Position numbers and translations under genes: made by a program | Notes under the pieces: generated by a model | The model's input: only the letters and a program-made list of their open reading frames with translations | Told to the model about the DNA's origin: nothing | The model's database searches: none | From: Candidatus Saccharimonadota bacterium | Lineage (GTDB): Bacteria; Patescibacteriota; Saccharimonadia; Saccharimonadales; Saccharimonadaceae | DNA length: 64,000 bases | Assembly (NCBI GenBank): GCA_017515205.1 | Contig: JAFWHN010000005.1 | Location: 13-64,012 of the forward strand | Reading direction: 5' to 3' | In this document: piece after piece, positions 21,037 to 59,843 of the stretch | Layout: every line of letters begins with the position of its first letter | Position numbering within the stretch: the first letter of the stretch is position 1

Positions 21037-21148
21037 CAAAAACCGTGCTTGCACGGTTTTTCTATGTTGCGAAAGTTGGACGAATTATTCGACCAACTGA
21101 GCAACATGTAGCAAAAACCGTGCTTGCACGGTTTTTCTATGTTGCGAA
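21016..21148 (+). repeat. Tandem 58-bp exact direct repeat (period 75) containing the ftsK 3' end and a hairpin
   Basis: 21016-21073 is identical to 21091-21148; internal palindrome aaaaaccgtgc-tt-gcacggttttt. Confidence 0.92.
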
Positions 21149-34855: not shown

Positions 34856-34872
34856 ACTTTCATTATAGCATA

Positions 34873-34954
34873 GCAAGCGGATGACGGCTTTGGAGGGGGT
34901 CCCCCAAAAGTGCCACCACTTTTGGGGGAGGACAAAAGCCGGCAGGACCCGCTT
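34873..34954. repeat. GC-rich nested palindrome between divergent xerC and ndk
   Basis: cccccaaaagtg/cacttttggggg inner stem; ggcttt/aaagcc and aagcgg/ccgctt outer stems. Confidence 0.75.
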
Positions 34955-34985
34955 AGAATATGCTATAATAAAAAAAAGGAGTTTT

Positions 34986-38613: not shown

Positions 38614-39651
38614 ATGAAACTATTAAAGAAAGATAATTCTAAAAAAACCGAAGAAGAAAAGGTCGAAGAGCGCCGCGAAGAGGTTTTGTCAAAAGGGCGT
38701 AAATTCAAATATCCTTTGCAGTGGACCAAACACCGCGTCGTCATTAATACGATTTTGATTGCTTTTGCCATTTTAGCTTTAATCATTACTGCTGGATGGT
38801 TGGCCCTGTATCAATTTGGCATGACGGACGACTTGCTTTATCGTGTCACCAGAATAATTCCAGTTTCAGTAGCGAGTGTTGATTCCGAAGATGTACGTTT
38901 TTCTGACTATCTTATGCTTTATCGCAGTAGCATCTCTTCTCTCGAACGCCAATCTAATAATCAATTTGACAATGAATCTATTGATGATTTGCACGCAGAA
39001 TACAAACGTTCTGCTCTCACCGAAGCCGAAGAATACGCATTAGCCGCGAAGCTAGCCCCAGAGCTTGACGTCACTGTCACTCCCGAGGAAGTTGACGCCG
39101 AATTTGATCGTCATCTCAAAATTGGTGGTCTTGATCGTAGTGAAGAAAGCTTCATGAAAATCGTCGAAGATAATTTCGGCCTCAGCAAAGATGAATATAA
39201 ACGCATGCTATATCTCACCTTATTAAAAGCTAAAGTTGAAACTAAAATCGATGATCAAGCTAACAAAATTGCCAAACAAGTGGAAGACATCCTTGCTTCA
39301 AGCGACAATGATTACGAAAAAGTCGCTACAGAACTTGGTGATCAAATTATTTACGAGGAAACTGGCGGATTAGTAGACAACAAAAATATTGACGGCGGTC
39401 GCGCTACCGAAGCCATGAAACTAGAACCAGGGAAGAGCAGTGGCAAATTTATTTCTATGAATGGCGATGGTTACTATTTCGTCAAATTAATTAAAAAAAC
39501 CAACGCCGAAGTCAACTTTGTCTCCATCAAAGTCCCGTTCACGGAATTTGATCAACGTTTTGAATCTCTCAAAAACGAAGGCAAAATCGTCGAATACATC
39601 ACCATCAACATTCCTTCCGAAGAAGAATCCACAACTAGCAACGAAAACTAA
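38614..39651 (+). CDS. SurA/PrsA N-terminal-domain-like foldase
   Basis: One TM helix, VASVDSEDV, helical chaperone domain, FGLSKDEYK; degenerate PPIase region. Confidence 0.65.
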   Translation: MKLLKKDNSKKTEEEKVEERREEVLSKGRKFKYPLQWTKHRVVINTILIAFAILALIITAGWLALYQFGMTDDLLYRVTRIIPVSVASVDSEDVRFSDYLMLYRSSISSLERQSNNQFDNESIDDLHAEYKRSALTEAEEYALAAKLAPELDVTVTPEEVDAEFDRHLKIGGLDRSEESFMKIVEDNFGLSKDEYKRMLYLTLLKAKVETKIDDQANKIAKQVEDILASSDNDYEKVATELGDQIIYEETGGLVDNKNIDGGRATEAMKLEPGKSSGKFISMNGDGYYFVKLIKKTNAEVNFVSIKVPFTEFDQRFESLKNEGKIVEYITINIPSEEESTTSNEN

Positions 39652-39711
39652 TAAAATTCTCTGTAAAACTACATGAGTCACAGTAGTAGGAAAATAAAAA
39701 ACATAAAAAAA

Positions 39712-39786
39712 TGGTGCGGGTATGGAGAGTCGGACTCCAATCTCATCCTTGGGAAGGATACATAATAGCCGTTATACGATACCCGC
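39712..39786 (-). tRNA. tRNA-Gly(CCC)
   Basis: GCGGGTA/TACCCGC; TATCC-TTCCCAA-GGATG; T-loop TCCGACT; A73-CCA. Confidence 0.9.
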
Positions 39787-39835
39787 GACTCTCCCTATTA
39801 TAGCACACGGGCTTAGATTATGGTATAATAATTTT

Positions 39836-41701
39836 ATGCAAGGATTAAAAGACCAACTTAAAAAAATTATTCAAGATTTGTATGGCCTCGATTTTGATCC
39901 CGAAGTTACTCCTGCTCCCGAGAATGTCACTGCCGATTATTCTACCAATGCACCCTTGAAACTTGCCAAAGAACTCCATAAATCTCCAATGATAATAGCA
40001 GAGGAGTTACAGAAAGCTTTTGTGAGCGTTCGCGACGACGGGAGCGAACGACGAAGCGCCGCCCGTAACGACGGGCCGGCGCGAGGAGGCGAGCAAAAGG
40101 TTTCTATAACTCCTCCTGGATTCATCAATTTCACTTTATCCGATTCTTACCTAGCAGAAAAGATTGATAGTTTATCAACTGATTTTGATCAATCTATTGT
40201 CTCTAATGATTACAAAGGTAAGACTGTGATTTGCGAGTTCAGCGATCCCAATCCTTTCAAAGTCCTTCACGTTGGTCACCTTTATACTAGTATCGTCGGT
40301 GACGCCATTTCAAATCTTTTTGAATATGCCGGCGCTAAGGTCATCCGCGCCAATTTCGGTGGTGACGTCGGTCTTCACGTGGCTAAAACCATGTATGTTC
40401 TACGGCAAAAGAATCCCAAAGAGATTCAAATCGAAGACATCTCCAGATGTTATGTCGAAGGTACCGCTCTTTATGAAGAAGATGAAAAAGCTCACCAAGA
40501 AATTACCGAGCTTAACAAAGAGATTTACAAAATCAATTCCGAAAACCTTCACGATTCTGACCTCGCTGAGTTATACTGGCAGGGCAGGGAATTATCTTAC
40601 GATTATTTCAAGAAGTTTTATGAGTCTATCGGCGTCAAGTTTGATAAGTATTATCCTGAATCTACCGTTGCGGCTCTTGGTCTAAAAACTGTCAAAGAAC
40701 AGCTAGAAAAAGGCGTCTACGAAAAAAGTGAAGGTGCTGTGATTTTCAACGGTGACAAATATGGCCTCCATACTCGCGTCTTTATTAATAGAGAAGGTGT
40801 CCCTACTTACGAAGCTAAGGATGTGGGTCTAATCTTCACTAAATGGCAAGATTATCATTTTGACAAATCTGTCGTCATTACTGGTTCCGAGCAGCTTGAT
40901 TACATGAAAGTGGTCTTAAAATCGGTCGAACAATACGCGCCCGAATTAGTTGAGCGCACCAGCCATTTAACTCACGGCCTTGTCAAACTCCCTGGTAATG
41001 TCAAAATGTCTTCTCGAAAAGGTAATTTCTTAAAAGCCGTTGACGTTCTCGATATGGTCAAAAACGAGCTAAAAACTGAGTATAACTCCGATGACGAGAT
41101 TGTCTCTCTCGCTGCTACCAAATATGCTTTCCTGAAATATAAAATGGGCGGCAACATTATCTTCGATCCGAAAGAATCCGTCAAAATGACCGGCAATTCC
41201 GGCCCATACCTGCTATATTCCGCCGTTCGTGCCGAAAAGATTCTTGAAAAGACGCAGGAGGGGCTCAAAAACAAGACACGAGTGAGCATTCACGACAACG
41301 GGAGTGAACGACGAAGCGCCACCCGTGACGACCGTCGTAGGAGCCGAGAAGACGAAAAGCTTGCTTTTCGTGTCGAGGCCACGCCCGACGGACGACCTAT
41401 GGTCGACGGGCCGGCGCGAGGAGGCGAGCGAGGGCTTGTTTTTGAGCCCTCCGAACGTGACTTATCTAAAAAGCTGTTGGACTATAAAGGAGTCTTGCAG
41501 GTCGCCGTTGCCGAAATGGCTCCGCACAAATTAGCGAATTACTTATACGAACTTGCCCAAACCTTTAGCCGTTTCTACGAGAGCTGTCCTGTAGCTGGCA
41601 GCGATCGAGAAGAGGAGCGCTTAAAGCTCGTCCAAGTCTACCTAGACACCATGACTCACGGTCTTAAAATTTTAGATATTAATATTCCGGAGGAAATGTA
41701 A
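39836..41701 (+). CDS. argS: Arginine--tRNA ligase with two in-frame repeat insertions
   Basis: PGFINF, DPNPFKVLHVGH, KMSSRKG, GNSGPYLLY; start after TATAAT + 6 nt. Confidence 0.95.
   Translation: MQGLKDQLKKIIQDLYGLDFDPEVTPAPENVTADYSTNAPLKLAKELHKSPMIIAEELQKAFVSVRDDGSERRSAARNDGPARGGEQKVSITPPGFINFTLSDSYLAEKIDSLSTDFDQSIVSNDYKGKTVICEFSDPNPFKVLHVGHLYTSIVGDAISNLFEYAGAKVIRANFGGDVGLHVAKTMYVLRQKNPKEIQIEDISRCYVEGTALYEEDEKAHQEITELNKEIYKINSENLHDSDLAELYWQGRELSYDYFKKFYESIGVKFDKYYPESTVAALGLKTVKEQLEKGVYEKSEGAVIFNGDKYGLHTRVFINREGVPTYEAKDVGLIFTKWQDYHFDKSVVITGSEQLDYMKVVLKSVEQYAPELVERTSHLTHGLVKLPGNVKMSSRKGNFLKAVDVLDMVKNELKTEYNSDDEIVSLAATKYAFLKYKMGGNIIFDPKESVKMTGNSGPYLLYSAVRAEKILEKTQEGLKNKTRVSIHDNGSERRSATRDDRRRSREDEKLAFRVEATPDGRPMVDGPARGGERGLVFEPSERDLSKKLLDYKGVLQVAVAEMAPHKLANYLYELAQTFSRFYESCPVAGSDREEERLKLVQVYLDTMTHGLKILDINIPEEM
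40022..40094 (+). repeat. GC-rich palindromic element, copy 1 (in argS)
   Basis: 73 nt; near-identical to 41282-41332 joined to 41408-41429. Confidence 0.9.
41261..41449 (+). repeat. Palindromic element copy 2 with nested 75-nt insert and 15-bp terminal inverted repeats (in argS)
   Basis: gggctcaaaaacaag (41261-41275) and cttgtttttgagccc (41435-41449) are perfect inverted repeats. Confidence 0.9.
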
Positions 41702-42225
41702 TGAAAAAAGCCAAATTGCTATGGGTGGATTTAGAGATGACTGGCCTCGATCCCGAGAAGGACAAAATTCTCGAAGTCGCTGCCATCGCTACCGATATGG
41801 ATTTAAAGCCAATTGCTAACTATGAAGCCGTAGTAAAAGTCGACGAAAAGCTCATGAAAGAGCGCATGATAGGTGATTTCTGGGAGAAAAACAAGAGATC
41901 ATATGATGCTCTAATGGCCCAAAATAAAGACGGCAAGCCAGTCAAAACCGTTGAAAAAGAACTCCTGACTTTTCTCAAACAGAATTTCGGCGAAACAGTT
42001 TATCTCGCTGGTAATTCTATCCACCAAGATCGCAAGTTTATCGAAAGGGAAATGCCAGAGTTAAACAGCAAGCTGCACTATCGTATGCTTGATGTTTCCG
42101 CCTGGAAGATTTATTTCGAGAACGCTTTAAATCACAAATTCGTTAAACCCGAAAATCATCGGGCCTTAGACGATATTAATGGTAGCATAGAGGAGCTCAA
42201 ATGGTATTTGACGTTTCTAAAATAA
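41701..42225 (+). CDS. orn: Oligoribonuclease
   Basis: LLWVDLEMTGLD, GNSIHQDR, HYRMLDVS, HRALDDI. Confidence 0.95.
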   Translation: MKKAKLLWVDLEMTGLDPEKDKILEVAAIATDMDLKPIANYEAVVKVDEKLMKERMIGDFWEKNKRSYDALMAQNKDGKPVKTVEKELLTFLKQNFGETVYLAGNSIHQDRKFIEREMPELNSKLHYRMLDVSAWKIYFENALNHKFVKPENHRALDDINGSIEELKWYLTFLK

Positions 42226-42488
42226 GTGGCATCGGCGAATTTAGGATCGTCAAAGAAAAAGACCGTGAATTGTATTTTAGAGGTCAGTTAGCTTTTTTGG
42301 TTTTGCATCGTAATACCATCGAATTACGTTGCGATGTCAGATTGAGCGAGAATCTCAAAGCTAAATATGAATCTATTATGGAGTCTCGTTATTTCGGCAA
42401 AGGCGGTATTGAAATTGTTTTGGCCAATCAATTAAGCCCCCAAGAAATTGAGGACTTAATCAGGCTTAGTTATAACCTTACTACTTAG
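42201..42488 (+). CDS. MmcQ/YjbR-like protein
   Basis: IELRCD...L..KY...DLIRLSYNL resembles YjbR. Confidence 0.55.
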
Positions 42489-42888
42489 ATTTTTTCTCGT
42501 CTTTTGCGTCTTTTTCAGCTTTTTTTGCGTCACGCTTGCGATTTAATCTATTCATTGCCTTGATGATCATAAAGATGACCCATGCTATAATGAGAAATTC
42601 TACAGCCGTTTGGATAAAGTTGCCGTAAGCAATTACTGCCTCGTCACCCGTACCAAAGAAATTCGGAATCCGAATCGCCAGATTTGTAAAGTCAACACCA
42701 CCTAGGAGCAACCCTACAATTGGCATTACGATATCGTTGACGAGCGAATTTACGATTGCTGTGAAGGCTCCGCCTACTGCCACACCTACGGCTAGGTCAA
42801 TCATTGAACCTCGGTTAATAAATTCGATAAACTCCTCTTTCAACCCCTGTTTTTCTTTTAGCTTTGCCGCCTCCTCAGATTTTGCCAT
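42481..42888 (-). CDS. mscL: Large-conductance mechanosensitive channel
   Basis: [33 protein letters not shown]; YGNFI. Confidence 0.96.
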
Positions 42889-42905
42889 AAAACTCCTTTC
42901 GTTTA

Positions 42906-43520
42906 TTATTTGGTCTCTGAAAAATCATTAAATTTATCATATAAATTTTCCAGACTATTGTGATTTTCTTTGAGGTCTTCCTTAAAAGCCTCGTTCTTCG
43001 TTGCGTCTATCAGTTTAGATTCTTCTGATAGAATCATCGTTATCTCATACGCCATTTTATGTGCAAAAATCCGATCCAGAATACCATTGATTTTTGCGTC
43101 AAATAGCTCCGCATCTAGCTCATCCATTTCTAGTTTTGCCGCTTCGACGACTTTCTCATCAATATTTTTCTTATTTAAACTATATTTTTCAGTTAAATAT
43201 TCTTCAATCTTGTTATCTATATTGGATAGAATTCCCGAAAGGGAAGCACTATTAGACCTTAGATCGGAGGATTTAATATCAGACTGATATTTCTTAATGA
43301 TTTCGTTAGTATTATCAATATGTAAGAATAAATCAATTGATAAGTTTTTCTCGCCACCCTTTCCGCTACCGAGCATCGAACCTATAATAATCAATACTAG
43401 AAGTGCACCAACGCCTATTATACCAATCTTAAAATAGATTGAAGAGAAAATACCATTTTTTTTCTTTGCTACCGGTCGATTAGCGGCTGAGATTTGATTC
43501 AGATATTCTTGCCCGTCCAT
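42906..43520 (-). CDS. Hypothetical membrane protein
   Basis: YLNQI N-terminus, one TM helix, helical domain. Confidence 0.65.
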
Positions 43521-43536
43521 ATGCTATAATTATAAC

Positions 43537-45171
43537 ATGAATGACGCGAAGGAGGAAATCAAATCTCGTCTCGCGGTGGAAGACGTAGTCGGACAATATG
43601 TGGAGTTGAAACGTGCCGGCCGTAATCTTAAAGGCCATTCTCCTTGGGGTGTAGATAAAACTCCTAGTTTCATGGTTTCTCCCGAAAAAGGTATTTGGCA
43701 TGATTTTTCTGCTAATAAAGGCGGTGACATTTTTTCCTTTATTATGGAAGTCGAAGGAATCAGTTTTAAAGAGGCTCTTGAAAAACTGGCTGGCCAAGCC
43801 GGAGTTGATCTGTCTAAATATAAAGGTGGGGATGTTCATACAGCTCAGAAAAAATCCCGCGCTAAAGCCGCTCTGGCTCTTGCTACCAAATACTACCAAG
43901 CCTGTTTAGTTCGTAATAAATCAGTCTGTGAATATGTTTTTTATAAACGCAACCTCAACCGTCCTACGGTGGCCGAATTTAAAATTGGCTACGCTCCCGC
44001 TTCCGGCAAAGCTCTCATTTCTGTGCTCCAAAAACATGGTTTTACCGAAGCAGAACTCGATGCTGCCGGGCTCTTAAATCGTTTTAAATCTGATTTATTC
44101 CGCAATCGTATGACGGTACCTTTTATCGACTCCTCTGGCGATGTGATTGGTTTTACAGCGCGTGTCCTAGATAAATCCGAGCCGAAATATTTAAACACTC
44201 CAGAAACAATTTTGTTCAATAAATCCAAATACATTTTTGGCCTGTATCAAGCTAAAGAATCAATTAGAAGAAACGGTTTTGTCGTCATCGTCGAAGGCAA
44301 TATGGATGTTATATCTTCCCATCAGGCCGGAGTTAAAGAAGCCGTCGCTACTTCCGGCACTGCGATGACTGAGCAGCATCTCAAAATCTTATCCCATCTC
44401 ACTAGCGATATTCGCTTGGCTTACGATGGTGATGCAGCCGGTGTTAAAGCCACCGAACGCGCCATTATGATGGCCGGTGATCTTGGCATTGATCTCACGG
44501 TTATTTCAGATTATCATGGCGCTAAGGATCCCGATGAACTCATCCAAAAAGATCCCAAACTTTGGCAAAAAGCCGTTGAAAAAAGTATTCCGGCCGTTGA
44601 CTGGCTTCTTCAAAAATACGAGGAAAACCTAGATCTTTCATCTGCCCCTGGCAAACGTAAATATTCAGATATCGCCCTTAAATTACTAGATTATGTCAAA
44701 GATGAAGTTGAAAAATCCAGTTATGAGAAAAAAATTGCTCAAAAATTAGATGTTTCGGTCGAAGTTTTACGAGAAAAAGGCGACCGTCTTGAAAAAAAGT
44801 TAGCTTCTTCTGCCAGAAAATATCTCAAAACTCCTAAAACCACTCTTAAAGATTCTCAGCTAGAAAAACTCGAAAACTCGCTTCTAGCTCTTAAAGTCTT
44901 TGGTGGCCTAACAAAAACTGATATTCCTCTCGAAATTCCGGATGACGACACTCGCCTTGCTGAGCTAGAACTAATTTTCAACCACGAACACGAAAACACT
45001 AAGGATTCAGATTTAGAAATTGAAGCTGCCGAGTTATTAGCGCGTTATAAAAAAGCCCTCACCAAGCAGGAAATTGTTACTTTATCGGCGCAGCTAGAAT
45101 CCCTGGATGAAGATTCCGACGAATACCTTAGTTTACTCCGCAAGATTCAAACCCTGCAACATAGCGAATAG
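43537..45171 (+). CDS. dnaG: DNA primase
   Basis: Degenerate Zn domain (SPWGVDKTPSF), PKYLNTPET, VEGNMD TOPRIM, YDGD, KDPDE. Confidence 0.95.
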   Translation: MNDAKEEIKSRLAVEDVVGQYVELKRAGRNLKGHSPWGVDKTPSFMVSPEKGIWHDFSANKGGDIFSFIMEVEGISFKEALEKLAGQAGVDLSKYKGGDVHTAQKKSRAKAALALATKYYQACLVRNKSVCEYVFYKRNLNRPTVAEFKIGYAPASGKALISVLQKHGFTEAELDAAGLLNRFKSDLFRNRMTVPFIDSSGDVIGFTARVLDKSEPKYLNTPETILFNKSKYIFGLYQAKESIRRNGFVVIVEGNMDVISSHQAGVKEAVATSGTAMTEQHLKILSHLTSDIRLAYDGDAAGVKATERAIMMAGDLGIDLTVISDYHGAKDPDELIQKDPKLWQKAVEKSIPAVDWLLQKYEENLDLSSAPGKRKYSDIALKLLDYVKDEVEKSSYEKKIAQKLDVSVEVLREKGDRLEKKLASSARKYLKTPKTTLKDSQLEKLENSLLALKVFGGLTKTDIPLEIPDDDTRLAELELIFNHEHENTKDSDLEIEAAELLARYKKALTKQEIVTLSAQLESLDEDSDEYLSLLRKIQTLQHSE

Positions 45172-45216
45172 ACTCTTAGTTGCATTATTTTTCTGAATAT
45201 ACTATACTTATACGTA

Positions 45217-46191
45217 ATGAACTTGCAAAACGATGATATTTTGGATGCTCAAGATTTAGCTTTAGATATTGATGAGCCGGAAAGTGATGATCTAGAAAGG
45301 GAAGAAGAGCTTTCTGATGAAGAATTAGCTATTACCGCGGAGAACGTTGATTCTTTTGCTGATGATTCTGTTAGGTTATATCTACGCGAAATCGGTAAAA
45401 TTCCTCTTCTAAGTCCTGAAGAAGAAGCCGATTTAGCCAAGCGCATCGTCAAAGGCGATAAAAAAGCCAAAGACAAAATGGTTGAATCCAATATGCGTTT
45501 GGTCGTTTCGATTGCTAAACGTTATGGTGGTCGTGGTCTAGATTTTCTCGATCTCATTCAAGAGGGAAACACAGGCCTACTACGTGCAGTTGAAAAATTT
45601 GACCCCGACAAAGGTTTTAAGTTCTCTACCTATGCTACTTGGTGGGTGCGTCAAGCCATTACTCGTGCTATCGCCGATCAGGCTCGCACTATTCGTATTC
45701 CTGTCCATATGGTTGAAACCATCAACAAGGTTTTAAGAACTACTCGTAAGCTTACTGCCGAACTCAACCGTGAACCCACCAATGAAGAAATCGCTAAAGC
45801 TCTTGATATGGAAGTTGATAAAGTTGACTACGTTATGCGCATCAAACAAGATATTGCTTCGCTCGATGCTTCCATTGGGCGCGAAGGTGACGATGAAGAT
45901 TCCGTGCTGGGTGATTTTGTCGAAGACGAAGAGCGTGACTCGCCCGAAGATTCTGCTGCTAACCAAATTTTAAAAGAGCAATTGTCTGAGATTATTTCTA
46001 CTTTGACTGATCGTGAACAAAAAATCATTCGTTTGCGTTTTGGTATTGGTGGTGGTCGTCCTCATACTCTAGAAGAAGTTGGCGCCGAATTCGATGTTAC
46101 TCGTGAGCGTATTCGCCAAATTGAGGCAAAGGCCTTGAGTAAGCTTCGCAAGAACAAAGACACTAAAAAACTACACGAATATTTAAGATAG
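45217..46191 (+). CDS. rpoD: Primary sigma factor (short, lacking region 1.1)
   Basis: [40 protein letters not shown]. Confidence 0.96.
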
Positions 46192-46201
46192 GAGGTTAAA
46201 A

Positions 46202-46561
46202 GTGAAAAAAGTTTTGCCATTATTAGCTGCTACCATGCTTGTATTTTCAGCTTTTACTGCTCCTTCAGTTATGGCCAAAAAAGACGATGACCCTCCGACC
46301 GCTATTCTTACCGATTGTGGTCAAGCCGAAGACGGTATTATGTGTATTTTAGAGCTCGTCATCGATATTATGACGATTGGTGTTGGTATCCTTGGCGTCA
46401 TCGGCATCACAGTTGTAGGTATTCAATATTTGACTGCCGGTGGTAATGAAGAAAAAACCCGTAAATCCAAAACCCGGATGTTTGAGATTATTATTGGACT
46501 AGTCGCCTATGCTTTGATTTACACCGTTCTCAAGTGGCTCCTACCGGGATTCGGCTCTTAA
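46202..46561 (+). CDS. TrbC/VirB2-like pilin
   Basis: Signal peptide, Cys pair, GIQYLTAGG.EEKTRKSK, two TM helices. Confidence 0.8.
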   Translation: MKKVLPLLAATMLVFSAFTAPSVMAKKDDDPPTAILTDCGQAEDGIMCILELVIDIMTIGVGILGVIGITVVGIQYLTAGGNEEKTRKSKTRMFEIIIGLVAYALIYTVLKWLLPGFGS

Positions 46562-46564
46562 GGA

Positions 46565-47482
46565 GTGAGTATGAAAAGGCTGATTTTAGTTTATAACCCT
46601 CGTTCGTCTCGTTTTGCAGATGTCAAAGCTAGTGTTTTAGATTGCGTGCACGATTTAAAAAGCTTTACCATTGGTAAATATGAAATTGCCCCGACTAATC
46701 TAGATGATAATATTGCTAAACTTTCCCAAATTTTACGGGATGACGATCTTTTACTTTCTGCTGGCGGCGATGCAACCGGCGTAATTTGCGCCAACGCTAT
46801 TATTAAATCCCAAAAAGACGTGACTTTGTCAGTTTTGCCGTTTGGTAATTTCAACGATCTCGCTCGCACCCTCGGCACCAAAACTTTCGATGACATCTTT
46901 TCTCGCGATAAGCTTATCTCTAAACAACTTTATCCTCTTGAAATCATCATTGATGGCAAACTTTTTCGCTATGCCACTTGTTATGTTACCATCGGTATGA
47001 CCGCTGCTGCTGTTAAACTTTATGATAGCCCCAAAATGCGCGCCAAATTAAAAACCAATTTTGGCCGTAAAGTTAGTTCCTATACGAATCTCACAAGCTG
47101 GTATTTTAAAAATCGTCATCGACAAGTTTTCCTTCCCGAATTCAAACTAAACGGTCAGCCAATGTCTCCTAAAATTTCCGACTACGCTGCCGTAAATGGA
47201 CGCTCTATGGCGCGCGTCATGAAGGGCGGGGAAGATTTTCTCGATTCCACTCATTTTCGTAGCGAAACTGACCATCTAACCAGTTTTTACCGTCTGTTCA
47301 AGCTCATGTCTCGCAGTATTTTTTCGCGCATTCCTGGTTCTACTACCACCGGCGATGTCATAGAGTTTAAGAATTCTGCTACTTTTACCCTTCAAGCCGA
47401 GGGTGAGTCAAAAGACTGTCAAAATGTCAAAAAAATTGAAATTAGAAAGGGAACTCAGTGCCTGAAAGTAATCACGAACTAG
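46565..47482 (+). CDS. Diacylglycerol-kinase-family protein
   Basis: VYNPRS, AGGDAT, LPFGNFNDLARTLG. Confidence 0.8.
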   Translation: MSMKRLILVYNPRSSRFADVKASVLDCVHDLKSFTIGKYEIAPTNLDDNIAKLSQILRDDDLLLSAGGDATGVICANAIIKSQKDVTLSVLPFGNFNDLARTLGTKTFDDIFSRDKLISKQLYPLEIIIDGKLFRYATCYVTIGMTAAAVKLYDSPKMRAKLKTNFGRKVSSYTNLTSWYFKNRHRQVFLPEFKLNGQPMSPKISDYAAVNGRSMARVMKGGEDFLDSTHFRSETDHLTSFYRLFKLMSRSIFSRIPGSTTTGDVIEFKNSATFTLQAEGESKDCQNVKKIEIRKGTQCLKVITN

Positions 47483-48261
47483 TGCAAGTTGTTTCTTATA
47501 TGAAAGCCCATTGGCCGTCCCATGTTAAACCAGAGTGGCAAGTAGATTTAGCGGACTATCCGGCTATCTTAAAGCAGGTGCTAGCAGATTTTACTCCTCA
47601 TGCCACCAAAAACCATCGTTTGTTTCGCATTGCTGGCATCTCTGGTTCTGGCAAAACTACTCAAATCCTTCCAGCCGTGGAGGCCTACTGTGAAAAGAAT
47701 CACCTTAGTCCAATCCTTATCGCTGCCCGACGTTTTGTAGAATATCATCCACATTACCAGGAAATTAAAGAGTATTATGGTGCCGAGAATCTGCGCAAAA
47801 TGACTGATGAGTTTTCTACCATTATGCTATTTTTGAGCTTATCTGAGCTCATTAAAAATGGCTATGATATCATTCTCGACGTGACGCTTTTAGCACCAGA
47901 AATGGAAGGCATCCTCCTAAAAATGCTTGAAAAAGAGAACTATGACTTACTAATTCTCATGGTCGCCATTTCACCTGCTGTGACAGAACACTTTTTGAAA
48001 GACCGTGCTTGGCGTCATACCAAAAAAACGGAGCAAGAATTTATCAAAGCTACCTCAGCAGCATTGCAATTTTACGCCGAGTCAAAACCCGATACCCATA
48101 TTATCGTATGGAGCGTATATGATAAATTACCAGTTTATGACGGCCCTATCAAAGATTCTCTTAAGACTTTTTCCGACTTATCTTCGTGTCAAGAATTACC
48201 AGCTCGTGACGATCCCGCTCGTCGCGATGCCAAAATCGAATATCTTGCAGAAATTAACTAG
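47482..48261 (+). CDS. Zeta-toxin-like P-loop kinase
   Basis: GISGSGKTT; RFVEYHPHYQEI resembles the zeta motif; YDIILDVT. Confidence 0.65.
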   Translation: MQVVSYMKAHWPSHVKPEWQVDLADYPAILKQVLADFTPHATKNHRLFRIAGISGSGKTTQILPAVEAYCEKNHLSPILIAARRFVEYHPHYQEIKEYYGAENLRKMTDEFSTIMLFLSLSELIKNGYDIILDVTLLAPEMEGILLKMLEKENYDLLILMVAISPAVTEHFLKDRAWRHTKKTEQEFIKATSAALQFYAESKPDTHIIVWSVYDKLPVYDGPIKDSLKTFSDLSSCQELPARDDPARRDAKIEYLAEIN

Positions 48262-50011
48262 CAATATTATAAACTGTGCCAACAAACCAGATTTCCCCAG
48301 AAGATTTATCACGAATTAAAAAGACGAACGGTTTATTTAGAGATAAATCAACTTCTTCAACTGGTACTTCCCATTCATACTCAAAATGACCCCCGCCCGT
48401 GCTCCCAGCTCCACCCATAGAAGTAGTTGCTGCAGCTTTTATCCCATCATTGCTAAAATCAATATTAGCTTTATGCATCACAAAGTCAATTCTCGGATTA
48501 TCAGACGAATTCTCGTCAGGCTCTAGCATATTAGAAAGATCTGCATTTTCTCTAGAAAAGACATCAACAATTCCAAATTTCTCCAAATCATCCTTCAGGC
48601 TTTCCATTTCATATTCAAACTTGAAAAACGGTATATCGGCAGATAATTTGGTCACTACTCCATCTTTATAACTCTGAGCTTGGTTAGCATCTTTAAGACT
48701 ATTAATTAGGCTAGTTGCTTTTTCTGCCGTTAAATCATTAATATAATTATTTAAGCTTTTTGTTTTTGGCATAATACTCACATACTGGAGGGTAGAACCA
48801 TCATATTCTTTCAAATCTTTTGCAAAGACAATTTCATCATCAGTATTATTAAAATAAAAATCAGTTGACTCGTCGACACGCCCATAATTTGATTTGAGCT
48901 CAGACATATACTTCTCTAGATCGAAAGAAAGATCAACGTCTTCAGGATTTTCAGGTGGATTTTTTCTTTGTTCCTCTAACCATTTATTGTATTCATTTTG
49001 GACTGTACTACGAATTGTTTCCTCGCCCAACTCTTTTACAATATCATATCGATTAGCACTTGCCCCAATCCTAGCAACGCTAACATCATCTTTACCGTTG
49101 AAAGTTCCTTTTGCAAAATCGTCCATTACGGCAGAAATATAGTGTGAATAAACTTCATGAGGATACCTGACAGAAAAAGTCCCTACCTTATCATTGCTTA
49201 AACAAGGCACAGATCTTTCGCCAATCGTACATTGTAACTGATTATTCCAGCTCATATCTATTGCTAGAGCATTAGTTAATAGATAATTTACTTCAGGGTT
49301 CAATGTTTCTTTATCAAATGTTTCAGGAATAATTCCCAGAGTTTTATCGCTTATCCATTTATTTGCCACATCTGGCGTATTAAAAGAATCAAATATCACA
49401 TCCGCATTGTATTTGGTTTGTATTGTATCGGTATACGTTTTCTTCACTTTTTCAGCAAAATCATTACGGATAAACATCGCATTTGCAAGAGAGCGATTTT
49501 TGCTATTAAGATAAGACTTAGGTAAATAATCGCCGATTATCCTTGTGATTTGTTCTTTAGAGTTGCCATTTGCTCCATCAGCAAGCATCGCAAGTGCATA
49601 TTTGATGGAAAGAGGGCTATAAACTAAATTATCTTCTACGTTTTCTAATCCCACAAACGCTAGGTCAAAATCGCTTAATCCATTACCTGGGATAGTCAAC
49701 TTCTCATAGTATGACAATTCTTTGGTAGTCAACTGATCATTGGCAGTTTCATCTCCACTTTCTTCTGGAAGATTAGCTAAAACCGCAGCTAATACTCCGA
49801 TTCCAATTACCAATATAGAAACTACAGATAAAACAAGAATTAATTTTTTCTTACTCTTTTTTGTAGTAGGTTGATCTGTCGCAACAATATCTGCAGGGTT
49901 CCCAGCGCTTTGAGGTTCAGTAGTAACTGATTGGTCTGGCATAGTTACAACTGATTGCGCATCTCCTAGCTGTTCACTATTATCATTCACGTTTTGATTA
50001 TTTTGATCCAT
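48254..50011 (-). CDS. Membrane-anchored serpin
   Basis: NLVYSPLSI, NALAI..W, hinge GIKAAATT, NKPFVFLIRD...FVG. Confidence 0.9.
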   Translation of the reverse strand: MDQNNQNVNDNSEQLGDAQSVVTMPDQSVTTEPQSAGNPADIVATDQPTTKKSKKKLILVLSVVSILVIGIGVLAAVLANLPEESGDETANDQLTTKELSYYEKLTIPGNGLSDFDLAFVGLENVEDNLVYSPLSIKYALAMLADGANGNSKEQITRIIGDYLPKSYLNSKNRSLANAMFIRNDFAEKVKKTYTDTIQTKYNADVIFDSFNTPDVANKWISDKTLGIIPETFDKETLNPEVNYLLTNALAIDMSWNNQLQCTIGERSVPCLSNDKVGTFSVRYPHEVYSHYISAVMDDFAKGTFNGKDDVSVARIGASANRYDIVKELGEETIRSTVQNEYNKWLEEQRKNPPENPEDVDLSFDLEKYMSELKSNYGRVDESTDFYFNNTDDEIVFAKDLKEYDGSTLQYVSIMPKTKSLNNYINDLTAEKATSLINSLKDANQAQSYKDGVVTKLSADIPFFKFEYEMESLKDDLEKFGIVDVFSRENADLSNMLEPDENSSDNPRIDFVMHKANIDFSNDGIKAAATTSMGGAGSTGGGHFEYEWEVPVEEVDLSLNKPFVFLIRDKSSGEIWFVGTVYNIAS

Positions 50012-50056
50012 AAACCTCCTTATCGATGGACCAATTATATATTAATATAAGCAATT

Positions 50057-50869
50057 TTACAACTGATTTAGATTAATCTCCGGAAAATGCGTTCGGATAT
50101 GCTCGGCATAGCCATTATCAATATCCTTCCATGCCTTCTTCATTCGCGTAATCTCGCTAGTATTATCAAAATAGCTCAAAAAGGCTTTTTCAAAATCTTT
50201 AGGCGCAGGTCTAGAGATTATTCTTGCTACATCCATATTCGGATTGCCTGTTCCTGCGAAGCAAAAATCAATTACGCCAATTACTTTATCATTTTTATCT
50301 AACAAAATATTTCCCAGATTTAAATCTCCGTGCACAAACTTTGACTGCTCGGTTGCTTTAATATATTTATGATCCGCATCAATATGCTTATCGTAATGCT
50401 CGTAGTCCAGTTCATGCAAAAATTCGCTAAGAGGGAACTGCACTTCTTTTGGCGCTCCTCTTAAATCAATGCCAGATAATTCTTTAATAAACTTCGCTAC
50501 ATCATATGCCGCACCAGTTAGCGCCGTATGTGATAAATGATAAATCCTATCTCCCAGTGTATAACCCTCAATTTTTTCGTGTACCGAAAACGGCCGCCCC
50601 TTAGAATCGTAATATAGTTTCATCTGCGGTGTGTAATAGCTAGTCTTGCCATCCACAAAATTACAAACTGCCGCATCTTTCACAATCATTCTTGACCAAA
50701 ACGGATTTCGTGGGAACCTGAAAAAATAAGCTCCTTTATCAGTATTTACCTCGATTACAATATTTGTCCAACCAGTTAAAATCTGCTTTGTGTCTAGAAC
50801 CTGTTTATCATCCATCGTCTCCTCAATAATTTTGTCCAACGGATCCGATGGAGTAAAAAAATTGTTCAT
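50057..50869 (-). CDS. Aminoglycoside-phosphotransferase-like kinase
   Basis: GWTN P-loop, FFRFPR, HGDLNLGNILL, GVIDF. Confidence 0.85.
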   Translation of the reverse strand: MNNFFTPSDPLDKIIEETMDDKQVLDTKQILTGWTNIVIEVNTDKGAYFFRFPRNPFWSRMIVKDAAVCNFVDGKTSYYTPQMKLYYDSKGRPFSVHEKIEGYTLGDRIYHLSHTALTGAAYDVAKFIKELSGIDLRGAPKEVQFPLSEFLHELDYEHYDKHIDADHKYIKATEQSKFVHGDLNLGNILLDKNDKVIGVIDFCFAGTGNPNMDVARIISRPAPKDFEKAFLSYFDNTSEITRMKKAWKDIDNGYAEHIRTHFPEINLNQL

Positions 50870-50977
50870 GTCTATATTATACGCTCTTTTGTTTTTCTTG
50901 CAAAAACGCTAAAAACCTATCTATAATGCCAGCTAAAAATACTTATCGTATTTGCCACCATATGTTATACTTATACC

Positions 50978-51544
50978 ATGGATAATGTTAAAATTCTCGC
51001 CGTAGTGGGCATGAGCGGGTCCGGCAAATCCGTGGTAGTAGACTATCTTACTGACAAAGGTTACCCCAAAGTCTACTTCGGTGGTATGATTTATAAAGAG
51101 ATGGAAAAACGTGGCATTGAGCGTACGCCCGATGGCGAATCCGAAAAGAAGTTTCGTGAAGAAATTCGTGAAAAAGAGGGAAAAGATTGGGTGGTCAATC
51201 AAGTTATCGCTGAAACCAAAGATTTAATTGCCGCCGGTCAAAAGCGCATTGTACTTGATGGCGTGTACTCTTGGACTGAATATAAGATTTTAAAGCACGA
51301 ATTCCCTAAAATTCTCACTTTTGTAGCCATCGTTGTAGACAAGAATTTACGCTATGATCGTGTTTCTAAACGTCCAGGTCGTTCCTTCGATGCTAAAGCG
51401 ATTCGTGAACGTGATCGCAGCGAAATCGAGAATCTCGAAAAAGGTGGCCCCATCGTTGCGGCCGACTATTATATTTTAAATAATGGTTCTATCGCAGATA
51501 TTCAAAATCGCGTTGATGGAATATTAAAGGAGATTGAGTTTTGA
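50978..51544 (+). CDS. P-loop nucleotide kinase (dephospho-CoA/adenylate-kinase-like)
   Basis: VVGMSGSGKS; VLDGV; RDRSEI...GG. Confidence 0.75.
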   Translation: MDNVKILAVVGMSGSGKSVVVDYLTDKGYPKVYFGGMIYKEMEKRGIERTPDGESEKKFREEIREKEGKDWVVNQVIAETKDLIAAGQKRIVLDGVYSWTEYKILKHEFPKILTFVAIVVDKNLRYDRVSKRPGRSFDAKAIRERDRSEIENLEKGGPIVAADYYILNNGSIADIQNRVDGILKEIEF

Positions 51545-51981
51545 CTACTACCGCTAATATATCCAATGTGGCTTACAAAAAAGGGAATTGGATGCGATAT
51601 ACCCTTTGGGCTCTAGCTGCCGTCTGCATCATCATCCTAATTCACACTTTTATCACTACTATGAATGGCGGTGTCTCAGCTGCTGTCCCTGAAGATTTTC
51701 GTTTTGCACTCACCGATAATTATAGCGAAGGTAGTAAACTCCGTACTACCTATTACGTATATGACGACAAAATTCTGGTAGTCGATGAAAGCGTTGATGA
51801 TAGTGGCGTCAACCGTAGTGTCATGATTTATGACGATGTCAATACTACTCCTCTCTATTTAGATTCTGAAGATACTACTGAAATTTGCGAGCTTGGCAGT
51901 TGTGCTGCCTATCCGAAGGTTCTTTCTACTATTAAAAGTTTAATTTCGCGTAAGGTGGGTCGGGAATATATAGGACTATAA
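51541..51981 (+). CDS. Hypothetical membrane protein
   Basis: Coupled to both neighbours; one TM helix; Cys pair. Confidence 0.6.
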   Translation: MTTTANISNVAYKKGNWMRYTLWALAAVCIIILIHTFITTMNGGVSAAVPEDFRFALTDNYSEGSKLRTTYYVYDDKILVVDESVDDSGVNRSVMIYDDVNTTPLYLDSEDTTEICELGSCAAYPKVLSTIKSLISRKVGREYIGL

Positions 51982-54359
51982 TGAAGCGTTTAGTATTAAT
52001 CGATGGTAAATCAGTTTTCTATCGTGGATACTATGCTATGGGCGCTCTTAGCCTCTCAGATGGCACCCCTACTGGTGGCGTTTACGGTTTTGCTGCCATT
52101 GCCATGGAGATTGTCAAAAAACTTGACCCTACCAAAGTCGTGGTAGCTTGGGACTCAAAAACTTCTACCGCCAAACGTCGTGCCATTTACCAAGATTATA
52201 AAGCTGGTCGCATTAAGCCCGGCGAAGATTTCTATACTCAAATACCTTTGCTTCAAACTTTAATTCAAGATTTAGGCTGGAGTTTTGTTGAAATTGATAA
52301 TTATGAAGCAGACGATATCATTGGGACACTAAGTCGTGAAGCCGACGAAGCCGGAGACTATGAAACTTACATTATTTCCAGCGACCTCGACATGCTCCAA
52401 ATTGTCGATAGCAATACCCATATGTGGCGTATTCTTAAAGGTTTCACTAATATTGAAAAAATTAATGTCCCCGAGCTAGAAGCTAAGTACGGCATCAAAA
52501 AGTCTCAATTCTTAGATCTTAAAGCTTTGAAAGGCGATTCTTCCGATAATATCCCAGGCGTTCCTGGCATCGGCGAGAAAACCGCTGCAAAATTATTAAA
52601 TGATTATGGTGATTTGGATAACCTTTATGAGCATCTAGATGAAATCAAGGGTTCCACCAAGACCAAACTTGAAGCAGGGAAAGATTCTGCCTATATGTCT
52701 CGTGACCTTGCTCGTATTATGTTTGACGCACCTGTTGACCTCAAAAAAATCCCTGATTTTCATTTTGACCAAGACAAAGTAATATCTGGCCTCAAAAAGC
52801 TCGAATTCAACTCCCTCATCCGCAAGGTTGACAAGGAAGCGCTCGAAAAAAATACTTTCGAGGAGCATAATCGCCGAGGGCCGGCCGCCCGTGGCGACGG
52901 GCCAGCCGGACGCGGCCCCAGAAGTAACAATGCTTCAGTGCCTGACATCATTGATTGGGACATCAAAGGCTTAATGCATAGCGACCAAACCATCGCCGAT
53001 GCAATTCTATCTGGCAAAAAATCTTTTTGGGACCTCGGCCAAGCTACCTTTTTGTTAAATCCTCTTTCGCGTGAAGAGCCACACCTTGCAGTTTTAGAAG
53101 AAGAGTACCAGCGTCAATTAACCGAATTTGCAAAAAATCCTCAACTTCTCAGTATCTATCAAGATTTTGATCTTCCACTCATCCCAATTCTATACAAAAT
53201 GGAAGATAAAGGCATGACTTTAGACTCAGATTATTTTAAAAAGCTTAAATCCGAATACGAGGAAATTATCCAGAACCTTGAACAAGAAATTTATCAATTG
53301 GCTGGTCAAGAATTAAATCTCAACTCACCCATTCAACTCTCCGAAGTGCTATTCAATAAGTTGCAACTTCCGACTAAAGGTATTAAAAAGACTACGCGGG
53401 GTTATTCTACTGGTGCTAAAGAATTAGATAAACTTCAAAATCTTCATCCTGTCATTCCCAAAATTATCGAATATCGCGAAGCTGCCAAACTTTTAAATAC
53501 TTACATTATTCCTTTGCCAGAACTTGCTGATTCGAACAATCGTATTCATACTACTTTTACTCAAAACGTTACTGCTACTGGTCGCCTTAGCTCCAAGGAT
53601 CCCAATCTCCAGAATATTCCTGTCCGCACTGACGAAGGCAAGCGTATCCGCACTGGTTTTATCGCACCGAAGGGCAAAATCTTTGTTTCCGCTGATTATT
53701 CTCAATTTGAACTCCGCCTTGCCGCCGTTCTTTCAAACGATCAGGCCCTTATTGATGATTTTAATCACGACATCGACGTTCATACCAAGACTGCCTCTGA
53801 AGCATTCAAAACTCCTTTTGCAAAAGTTACCAAGACACAACGTCGTGCTGCTAAGGTGATTAATTTTGGCATTCTTTATGGTATGAGTGTCAAAGGCTTG
53901 TCTGATGCTGCTAAAATGCCATTTAACGAAGCTAAAGATTTTATCGACAATTATTTCAAATTACGTGCACCTATTAAACAAAAATTGGAGGCTATCTTAA
54001 AACAAGCCAGGGAAGCAGGCTTCGTCGAAACTTTCTACGGCCGTCGCCGTCCTACGCCAGACGTTAAATCAAGTAATTTCCTTATCCGCCAAGCCGCTGA
54101 GCGTGCTGCTGCCAATATGCCGATTCAGGGTACCGAAGCTGATCTCATGAAACGCGCCATGATCCAAGTTGACCAGGCTTTGCCAGATGATGCTTCTCTG
54201 GTCATGCAAGTGCATGATTCTCTTATTGTGGAATGTGACGAAAAATCAGCTCAACTGGTATCCGATATTCTTAAAACCAAAATGGAAGCCATTGCTCCTG
54301 AATTAAAAATCAAACTTGCTGTTGACGTGACCACTGGCCACAACTGGGGCGAATTATAA
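51981..54359 (+). CDS. polA: DNA polymerase I (reduced 3'-5' exonuclease region)
   Basis: YEADD, GDSSDNIPGV, TGRLSS..PNLQNIP, ADYSQ.ELR, K..NFG..YG, QVHD. Confidence 0.96.
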   Translation: MKRLVLIDGKSVFYRGYYAMGALSLSDGTPTGGVYGFAAIAMEIVKKLDPTKVVVAWDSKTSTAKRRAIYQDYKAGRIKPGEDFYTQIPLLQTLIQDLGWSFVEIDNYEADDIIGTLSREADEAGDYETYIISSDLDMLQIVDSNTHMWRILKGFTNIEKINVPELEAKYGIKKSQFLDLKALKGDSSDNIPGVPGIGEKTAAKLLNDYGDLDNLYEHLDEIKGSTKTKLEAGKDSAYMSRDLARIMFDAPVDLKKIPDFHFDQDKVISGLKKLEFNSLIRKVDKEALEKNTFEEHNRRGPAARGDGPAGRGPRSNNASVPDIIDWDIKGLMHSDQTIADAILSGKKSFWDLGQATFLLNPLSREEPHLAVLEEEYQRQLTEFAKNPQLLSIYQDFDLPLIPILYKMEDKGMTLDSDYFKKLKSEYEEIIQNLEQEIYQLAGQELNLNSPIQLSEVLFNKLQLPTKGIKKTTRGYSTGAKELDKLQNLHPVIPKIIEYREAAKLLNTYIIPLPELADSNNRIHTTFTQNVTATGRLSSKDPNLQNIPVRTDEGKRIRTGFIAPKGKIFVSADYSQFELRLAAVLSNDQALIDDFNHDIDVHTKTASEAFKTPFAKVTKTQRRAAKVINFGILYGMSVKGLSDAAKMPFNEAKDFIDNYFKLRAPIKQKLEAILKQAREAGFVETFYGRRRPTPDVKSSNFLIRQAAERAAANMPIQGTEADLMKRAMIQVDQALPDDASLVMQVHDSLIVECDEKSAQLVSDILKTKMEAIAPELKIKLAVDVTTGHNWGEL
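52878..52918 (+). repeat. Palindromic element related to the argS copies (in polA)
   Basis: gccgcccgtggcgacgggccagc (52884-52906) matches argS gccgcccgtaacgacgggccggc at 20/23. Confidence 0.8.
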
Positions 54360-59601: not shown

Positions 59602-59765
59602 CGGCGTATTCACACGTTCGACGAGGCTCGCACCGAGCCGCAGTCGAGATCCGAATCTCTCTTTTTGATATTTTTTTCGTAAAAAAAAATGGCGGATCCG
59701 CACCGAAGGTTCGAGCTTTGCTCGACGAGGCTCGAACTCGCGACCGCTTTTTTTCGTAAAAAAAA
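59602..59765 (-). repeat. Two degenerate tRNA-Asp 3'-end copies with hairpin inserts
   Basis: tggcggatcc at 59690 and 59766; acgaggctcg occurs three times; gagatccgaatctc motif near 59646. Confidence 0.88.
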
Positions 59766-59843
59766 TGGCGGATCCGACGAGGCTCGAACTCGCGACCTCT
59801 GCCGTGACAGGGCAGCGCTCTAAACCAACTGAGCTACGAATCC
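59766..59843 (-). tRNA. tRNA-Asp(GTC)
   Basis: GGATTCG/CGGATCC; CTGCC-CTGTCAC-GGCAG; TTCGAGC; CCA. Confidence 0.97.

Follow-up and report, generated by a model that had tools for sequence, protein, structure and literature searches.

The 64,000-nt window analyzed here (positions 13 to 64,012 of contig JAFWHN010000005.1, assembly GCA_017515205.1, from a Candidatus Saccharimonadota bacterium of the genus Nanosyncoccus) contains argS, the gene encoding arginyl-tRNA synthetase (ArgRS), at 39836-41701 on the forward strand, identified as an open reading frame (ORF) with orthologs at E = 0 and by alignments. With two inserts, the encoded protein comprises 621 amino acids, compared with ~544 in insert-free orthologs. 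The first insert, copy 1 of the palindromic element described in this study, occupies 40022-40096 on the forward strand. As delimited by ortholog alignment, covariance model, and G+C content, it is a 75-nt A-type core that adds 25 residues in frame (residues 63-87, VSVRDDGSERRSAARNDGPARGGEQ), immediately N-terminal of KVSITPPGFINF and just ahead of the conserved PGFINF motif. An earlier interpretation made from the DNA letters alone (the sequence-only reading) had proposed an in-frame, GC-rich palindromic insert in the N-terminal part of ArgRS before PGFINF, and alignment, folds, and base composition all agree with it. The start given there, 40022, also stands, and its end, 40094 (73 nt, ~24 amino acids), falls two bases short of the 25 codons set by the orthologs. 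The G+C fraction reaches 0.70 at 40020-40079 versus ~0.40 in the flanks and 0.40-0.41 across all nine contigs of the genome, and the covariance-model match spans 40020-40096 (97 bits, E = 1.5e-23).

Copy 1 forms both of the hairpins named in the sequence-only reading, GTTCGC..GCGAAC at 40028-40049 and GCGCCGCCCGT-AACG-ACGGGCCGGCGC at 40056-40082. The former, designated P2 (GTTCGC-GA-C(GACG)G-GA-GCGAAC), contains tandem G.A internal loops and is supported by folds and by covariation in helices 3 and 4. The latter, P3 (GCGCCG-CCCGT(AACG)ACGGG-C-CGGCGC), carries a bulged C and is the best-conserved part of the hairpin family, with 10 of the 11 pairs of helix 5 changed on both sides. Fold and flank complementarity place an outer stem within native codons, its 5' arm at 39999-40021 (..AEELQKAF) and its 3' arm at 40097-40118 (KVSITPP..), both on the forward strand. 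The folding energy of the 75-nt core alone is modestly unusual (z = -2.2, with 7 of 200 shuffles equally good under DNA parameters); with its flanks included (39996-40122), copy 1 reaches z = -6.5 whichever strand is folded, and none of 200 shuffles did as well. Copy 1 is placed beyond chance because its sequence recurs, both in the gene and in the genome: two of its pieces, 21-25 nt long, are found again 1260 nt downstream within argS and in the same frame, where 0 matches were expected.

This recurrence belongs to copy 2 (41261-41449, forward strand; repeat search and folds), which lies in a loop of the anticodon-binding (DALR) domain and shares the subtype and frame of copy 1. It is flanked by perfect 15-nt inverted repeats, GGGCTCAAAAACAAG (41261-41275) and CTTGTTTTTGAGCCC (41435-41449); its covariance-model match covers 41280-41359, and the recurrence of the copy 1 ends begins at 41282. 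Sequence comparison revealed a secondary hairpin element of 75 nt with the loop AGCTTGCT nested in copy 2 (41333-41407, forward strand), at the apex of P3 between ..GTGACGAC and GGG... The nested element finishes in GAC, repeating the GAC that precedes it. A third copy in the window, degenerate or hybrid in character, lies in frame in polA (..EEHNRRGPAARGDGPAGRGPRSN..) at 52851-52944 on the forward strand; it is recognized by its core hairpin CCCGTGGCGACGGG at 52888-52901 and falls under the covariance-model threshold.

The genome-wide search that the sequence-only reading had recommended identified 19 copies in the 650-kb genome (G000), 17 with the exact core hairpin CCYGT-NNNG-ACRGG and two degenerate (argS copy 2 and the copy in priA). 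The core motif occurs 15-17 times in this genome versus 0 for a reversed-pattern control, and the covariance model gives 14 hits. Fourteen copies lie in frame within long intact ORFs of 12 unrelated housekeeping genes, and five are intergenic or located just upstream of a start codon. As assigned with NCBIfam, the host genes encode TruB, LepA, an RlmD-like methyltransferase, GatA, UvrB, XseA, a TIGR01177-like methyltransferase (two copies), MnmA, GatB, and PriA, to which ArgRS (two copies) and PolA are added; the family profiles match on either side of the inserts and skip the inserts themselves. Relative to the gene, seven in-gene copies are sense and seven antisense. Three C-type copies occur within 2.6 kb (G000:C9:286581-289207), all antisense to the host gene, one at the XseA N-terminus and two in the TIGR01177-like methyltransferase. 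Regional clustering of the copies in the genome was not significant (6 neighbor gaps <7 kb versus 3.2 expected, P = 0.07).

Each copy forms a single long hairpin, 117-146 nt in length and folding at -41 to -79 kcal/mol (RNA parameters), with 25-35 outer pairs and a three-way junction at its center, formed by a closing stem, the short hairpin P2, and the longer hairpin P3. In 14 of 17 copies the junction, counted from the multiloop-closing pair through its partner, spans 62-65 nt, and the conserved unit measures ~63-75 nt. P2 often shows tandem G.A internal loops and a C-RACG-G tip, whereas P3 ends in a near-invariant tip, CCYGT-RRMG-ACRGG, with a bulged C. At least four subtypes exist, differing chiefly in P2, and the stem's outer 15-30 bp, which are AT-rich, are distinct at every locus. 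The covariance model was seeded on one subtype (nine A-type copies) because plain MAFFT alignment of all subtypes recovered P3 only; 89 copies from this genome and its relatives were then aligned and 86 distinct rows scored. Standard pairs fill 84% of cells in these rows versus 62% in column shuffles and 26-44% with slid partners, a comparison in which the fitting of the alignment to the model favors the structure and the gap to the slid controls is nonetheless large. Changes on both sides were found in 24 of 25 pairs, and the covariation score of 0.49 versus 0.14 was reached by 0 of 500 shuffles. Two P3 pairs are G.A or A.G in 63 of the 86 copies and Watson-Crick in the remainder.

The two strands of the element differ weakly. 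Its plus strand is more stable than the complement irrespective of the gene strand (26 versus 9 copies, mean -5.8 kcal/mol), with no G.U asymmetry between the strands (93 versus 106 G.U pairs). In 14 of the 19 copies the plus strand lies on the C-rich strand of the contig, which is suggestive only (binomial p ~0.06); both orientations (8 and 3) are present on contig C9 despite a GC skew of a single sign throughout. When window positions 39500-53500 and 16 loci around copies were compared with Rfam 15, only tRNAs were matched at E up to 1, and no other RNA family, ribozyme, or intron.

The hairpin family is restricted to Nanosyncoccus. The covariance model detected 230 copies in 23 of 25 genomes of the genus (14 in this genome and 216 in 22 of its 24 relatives), with 0 to 22 hits per genome, and 0 hits in 16 outgroup genomes representing 16 other families of the order. 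In 23 of 24 sampled genus genomes the core motif is present 1-28 times, compared with a background of 0-3 in the 16 other families, and among 400 genomes of Patescibacteria (319 genera) it exceeds three per genome only in members of the genus. The ArgRS sample comprised 110 loci, the nearest of which come from Candidatus Nanosyncoccus and 'Candidatus Saccharibacteria' metagenome-assembled genomes from the gut of sheep, goat, yak, buffalo, and cattle, and from the oral/rumen isolate Ca. Nanosyncoccus alces. No account of such elements in Saccharibacteria or Patescibacteria was found in a limited full-text search of the open-access literature.

Ortholog alignment delimited the 25-residue insert, as the sequence-only reading had advised. 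At ArgRS site 1, which precedes PGF[IL]N and holds copy 1, 49 species are empty, 29 occupied, and 11 intermediate; at site 2, which follows the first helix of the anticodon-binding domain and precedes the second, 35 are empty, 44 occupied, and 11 intermediate. Both sites are empty in all other families. No ArgRS that falls outside the genus contains the copy 1 peptide, and 49 of ~90 scorable species within it lack the peptide as well. The outcome which the sequence-only reading had named as contrary to its proposal, a peptide conserved in distant ArgRS proteins without palindromy in the DNA, was thus not what the alignments gave. On an ArgRS tree of ~100 species, built with the insert columns removed, a minimum of 20 state changes is needed at site 1 and 14 at site 2. 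Close relatives illustrate this turnover: L096, in which site 2 is occupied, and L111, in which it is empty, have 92% identical ArgRS; L067, 95% identical to L096, carries another subtype with other outer arms at the same site; and an insert at site 1 is present in L057 but not in L096 or L111. Relics are also found, since G001 retains just the left end of the element seen here and site 1 of G007 holds a bare AT-rich palindrome. Empty genomes and all outgroups have a LepA linker of 14-15 residues, versus ~44 residues in this genome, and another species carries an antisense copy at the same position. Two further features of argS were noted in relatives. Covariance-model hits of 35 bits in L063 (1728-1802) and L095 (1731-1805), ~730 nt from the start, mark a third site, and therefore the genus has at least three permissive argS sites. 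Site 2 of L103 is occupied by a 236-nt near-perfect hairpin in frame (93 pairs, -119 kcal/mol) without the usual three-way core.

At copy 1 the 75 nt constitute the whole insert, and every residue of the native flanks has its counterpart in empty orthologs. With sequence anchors used as boundaries, these flanks are complementary at 17 positions; 48 empty orthologs average 9.2 such positions and never exceed 13. The orthologous 75-nt insert at site 1 is common to six species, in which the adjoining codons differ and complementarity is kept: the residues to the left and right are KAF/KVS, GGF/NLS, and DTF/KYP, and the adjoining nucleotides AAAGCTTTT/AAGGTTT, GGAGGTTTT/AACCTCTC, and GATACTTTT/AAATATCC. 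The outer stems of the LepA copies likewise co-vary between two species. Such complementarity would be explained either by templated copying from arm to arm without selection or by selection on the hairpin.

The cores at sites 1 and 2 are more alike within a genome than between genomes (identity 0.83 versus 0.70; permutation p = 0.009, the minimum attainable with five genomes), and the likeness is also visible by eye in this genome, G006, and G011. Between this genome and G011, the orthologous LepA copies agree in their arms, but their P2 and P3 modules match other paralogs. As judged from sequence comparison, the within-genome likeness and the LepA modules suggest either that copies convert one another or that occupied sites are invaded again. 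A hairpin element of ~75-80 nt (loop AGCTTGCT or AGCTCGCT) was found at the identical point of the P3 apex in three species, namely in copy 2 of this genome, at site 2 of L051, and at site 1 of L122. Its junction reads ..GTRACGAC^..GAC^GGG.., with GAC at its end each time. This suggests that hairpin tips are preferred entry points, which could explain both the re-use of sites and the occurrence of newer cores within older, decayed arms.

The reading frame is kept open in all 14 in-gene copies, in ~70 distinct ArgRS inserts, in all LepA inserts, and in every one of the ~110 ArgRS genes. In one sense frame the P3 loop becomes CCG-TGA or CCG-TAA; this frame contains a stop in 71 of 78 copies and is used by none of the seven sense in-gene copies: the two in ArgRS and that in PolA read ..ARxDGP.., and those in LepA, GatB, MnmA, and RlmD read ..PVTTG... 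Across both strands the shared core is read in at least five frames (..AARNDGPA.., ..SPVTTG.., ..PSSRG.., ..PVVTG.., and ..PSPRA..). Modeling of the insert as a surface loop, also proposed in the sequence-only reading, was carried out with AlphaFold2 on a 34-sequence alignment and gave a mean predicted local distance difference test score (pLDDT) of 67, which is moderate. Both ArgRS inserts appear in the model as low-confidence coils between native secondary structure elements: residues 66-87 lie between helix 51-64 and strand 88-92, and residues 485-537 between helices 455-484 and 538-548, with pLDDT <50 over 69-85 and 478-532. Conservation of the frame favors translation of the inserts with the host protein, in which each would probably form an extra hydrophilic, disordered loop of 25-35 residues.

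From the observed family, its structure, its in-frame state, and its dynamics of presence and absence, we infer that copy 1 is one member of a genus-restricted, selfish, translated family of palindromic DNA resembling the Rickettsia palindromic elements (RPEs), and we assign this reading a probability of about 80%. Copies would occupy permissive loops of housekeeping genes, where they would be transcribed and translated with the host, and a few lie between genes. They would represent selfish DNA gained and lost many times in the genus, of which only frame-preserving copies survive within genes. Gene conversion or re-invasion of the same sites would keep the copies of one genome alike. Hairpin-templated copying, in the form of intrastrand template switching of the quasipalindrome-correction type, would both build the long locus-specific outer stem and maintain the pairing of its arms, and for this reason the stem would extend into adjacent host codons; no dedicated transposase would take part. 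A more far-reaching version, which we put forward tentatively and consider doubtful, is that of a transposase-free mobile DNA based on hairpin chemistry alone, whose GC-rich three-way-junction core is copied between sites or hairpins by replication template switching or gene conversion, with the preference for apices seen in the three independent nested inserts, and whose stem is self-proofread by copying from flank to flank, thereby rewriting host codons.

The Y1/RAYT transposase domain PF01797 gave 0 matches in this genome and in 23 of 24 genus genomes, in a search limited to this transposase family and with controls that responded. Truncated-looking matches to Y1_Tnp (PF01797), 1-6 in number and located in ORFs of ~200-240 amino acids, occur in G025, G030, G032, G035, and G036, which belong to other families, and within Nanosyncoccus only in G023. 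The sister families therefore possess IS200/IS605-type or RAYT-like genes, yet without this hairpin family. No direct repeats were found at the predicted hairpin ends of 16 copies, ends which are fuzzy, the sole 3-nt repeat being the GAC of the nested element. There are no conserved terminal inverted repeats, as the outer stems differ at each locus and only the internal core is common. A phage carrier was considered and rejected. The 16-nt core pattern occurs once each in at least 120 IMG/VR contigs, all but five of 120 loci exceed 50% G+C, and the five low-GC loci lack the context of the element, so these matches are attributed to chance.

Several points weigh against selfish spread as set out above. 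Sense orientation is nearly constant in ArgRS (15 of 15 inserts at site 1 and ~27 of 28 at site 2), a pattern better accounted for by a small number of old insertions, with later losses and conversion of the cores, than by numerous fresh ones, so that transposition may in truth be rare. The term mobile rests on phylogenetic presence and absence, because no strain-level insertion was caught, no target-site duplication was seen, and no enzyme was identified. The AlphaFold2 model is mediocre overall and of low confidence in other regions as well. Strong covariation in all five helices, the conserved bulged C, and the tandem G.A motifs speak for hairpins kept for a function in host DNA or RNA, as protein-binding cruciforms, as recombination or replication signals, or as ribosome-pausing mRNA structures between domains, in which case their spread would reflect recruitment rather than parasitism. 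The outer stems of orthologous copies stay complementary as their sequence drifts, the plus strand is the more stable of the two on either gene strand, that strand lies on the C-rich strand in most copies (14/19, p ~0.06), and the inserts are placed at domain linkers. Nevertheless, many healthy close relatives and all sister families have neither the two ArgRS sites nor the LepA site filled, genomes of the genus vary from 0 to 22 in copy number, the 7 versus 7 orientation relative to the gene means that no single mRNA structure is conserved, and templated correction can keep arms complementary without selection. A host function is, in our view, unlikely.

Less probable still is that the insert is absent from the protein, either spliced out like a mini-intron or bypassed by the ribosome in the manner of mitochondrial byp elements and T4 gene 60. 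GC-rich hairpin inserts in the AT-rich, compact mitochondrial genomes of Magnusiomyces are bypassed, and this precedent lends the idea some plausibility. Skipped inserts, however, need neither an open frame nor a length that is a multiple of three, and all in-gene inserts have both, which disfavors bypass; moreover, the stop-containing frame is avoided, neither matching take-off and landing codons nor a stop after a take-off codon was noticed, and no Rfam ribozyme or intron was matched. Ordinary lineage-specific loop expansion in ArgRS with incidental palindromy could draw on the fact that both sites are variable linkers whose length differs among bacteria, but its chance is negligible, and the dispersed DNA-level copies already refute it. 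What recurs is the DNA, and not just the peptide; it is present in 12 unrelated genes as well as between genes, and it is read from both strands and in different frames, with 70% G+C in a 41% genome, a folding z of -6.5, and covariation.

Other hairpins and repeats were encountered in the course of the analysis. Window 34862-34969 and G000:C1:11078-11226 hold members of a second long-hairpin family, unrelated to the first, whose outer arms differ by locus and which share the inner motif GGATGACGG..GGAGG..GGAGGACAA..CCGGCAGG; the copy in the window is intergenic and folds at -53 kcal/mol. The genome hairpin survey was made as a k-mer inverted-repeat scan. Two more very stable long hairpins, with other cores, lie at G000:C8:25369-25477 (-60 kcal/mol) and G000:C9:141846-141990 (-68 kcal/mol), and long palindromes seem to be abundant in this genome overall. 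Window 21013-21148 holds two units of 61 nt in tandem (98% identity), each with the hairpin AAAAACCGTGCTTGCACGGTTTTT and terminator-like in appearance. Downstream of tRNA-Asp (59766-59843), window 59602-59765 on the reverse strand contains two partial copies of the tRNA-Asp 3' end, each followed by T9-ACG-A7, one of which is split by 24 nt able to pair with the copy of the T arm. These copies look like remnants of attachment sites of integrating elements; comparable copies of tRNA ends are found near tRNA-Ser (~1908) and tRNA-Gln (~18600).

Among known systems, the closest are the RPEs. As summarized in PMC10969869, RPE-1 to RPE-10 are dispersed palindromes of ~150 bp in a reduced genome, where unrelated housekeeping genes carry them in frame (Ogata et al., 2000, 2002). 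Both cases involve a palindromic family of ~100-150 nt in the small AT-rich genome of an obligate symbiont, with many in-frame copies in intact housekeeping genes, a predicted added surface loop, and no known transposase. The likeness proposed in the sequence-only reading therefore holds in kind; what that reading missed was the ~120-nt hairpin reaching into native codons, the three-way junction, the several subtypes, and the lack of a fixed frame and of conserved ends. RPE families reportedly encode a conserved peptide, whereas at least five frames on both strands are used here. Only the GC-rich three-way-junction core of ~63 nt is common to the Nanosyncoccus copies, the outer 15-30 bp being locus-specific and partly composed of host codons; the same few sites hold different subtypes across species, nesting occurs, and copies of the same genome are alike. 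Since the family is confined to one genus of Saccharibacteria, we claim analogy with RPEs and not homology; the phylum is another one, no sequence relation is expected, and the comparison is made by description only.

The mobile GC clusters of yeast mitochondria (GC42, PMC4478555), the double-hairpin elements of Allomyces, and the hairpin elements of sponge mitochondrial DNA (PMC2800124) are likewise GC-rich hairpin mini-elements that spread in AT-rich compact genomes, with stems more conserved than loops, merged or nested palindromes, conversion as a discussed mechanism, and no dedicated transposase. In contrast to the Nanosyncoccus family, they are organellar, mostly intergenic, and built as simple or double hairpins without long locus-specific outer stems, and GC42 has a defined AG target dinucleotide, whereas no such target was seen here. 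[quoted passage not shown] Unlike REP/REPIN-RAYT, the family is found without PF01797 and with 14 of 19 copies intragenic rather than extragenic; unlike MITEs, its ends are not conserved and no target-site duplication was seen at these fuzzy ends. By its testable features, the family is neither REP/RAYT, nor a classical MITE, nor a known RNA family. Quasipalindrome template-switch mutagenesis (the Ripley model, studied by the Lovett laboratory in E. coli) is a mutational mechanism acting on short quasipalindromes. It is not a mobile-element family; here it would explain how imperfect inverted repeats beside a strong hairpin become complementary and how the arms change together, a role that we infer from the sequences only. 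The Nanosyncoccus family is thus a new, genus-restricted family of the RPE kind, set apart by its structural and evolutionary features.

For 25 years, in-frame coding palindromes have been a curiosity of Rickettsia, and Saccharibacteria, which belong to the Candidate Phyla Radiation (CPR), would provide a second, independent, and far more dynamic case. It would show that selfish hairpins in essential genes recur in reduced, gene-dense, AT-rich genomes. In practical terms, the inserts inflate or split gene models and create hotspots of alignment error in markers used for CPR phylogeny (ArgRS, LepA, GatA/B, UvrB), and they may be of use as strain markers. Hundreds of copies in ~100 species, with repeated gain and loss at the same codons, subtypes, nesting, and co-varying stems, make it testable how DNA of this kind moves without a transposase and whether it contributes to protein evolution. 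If spread by hairpin chemistry alone is true, it would be a mode of spread and self-maintenance undescribed for bacterial mobile elements, and would offer the essential proteins of these ultra-small bacteria a steady supply of new surface loops.

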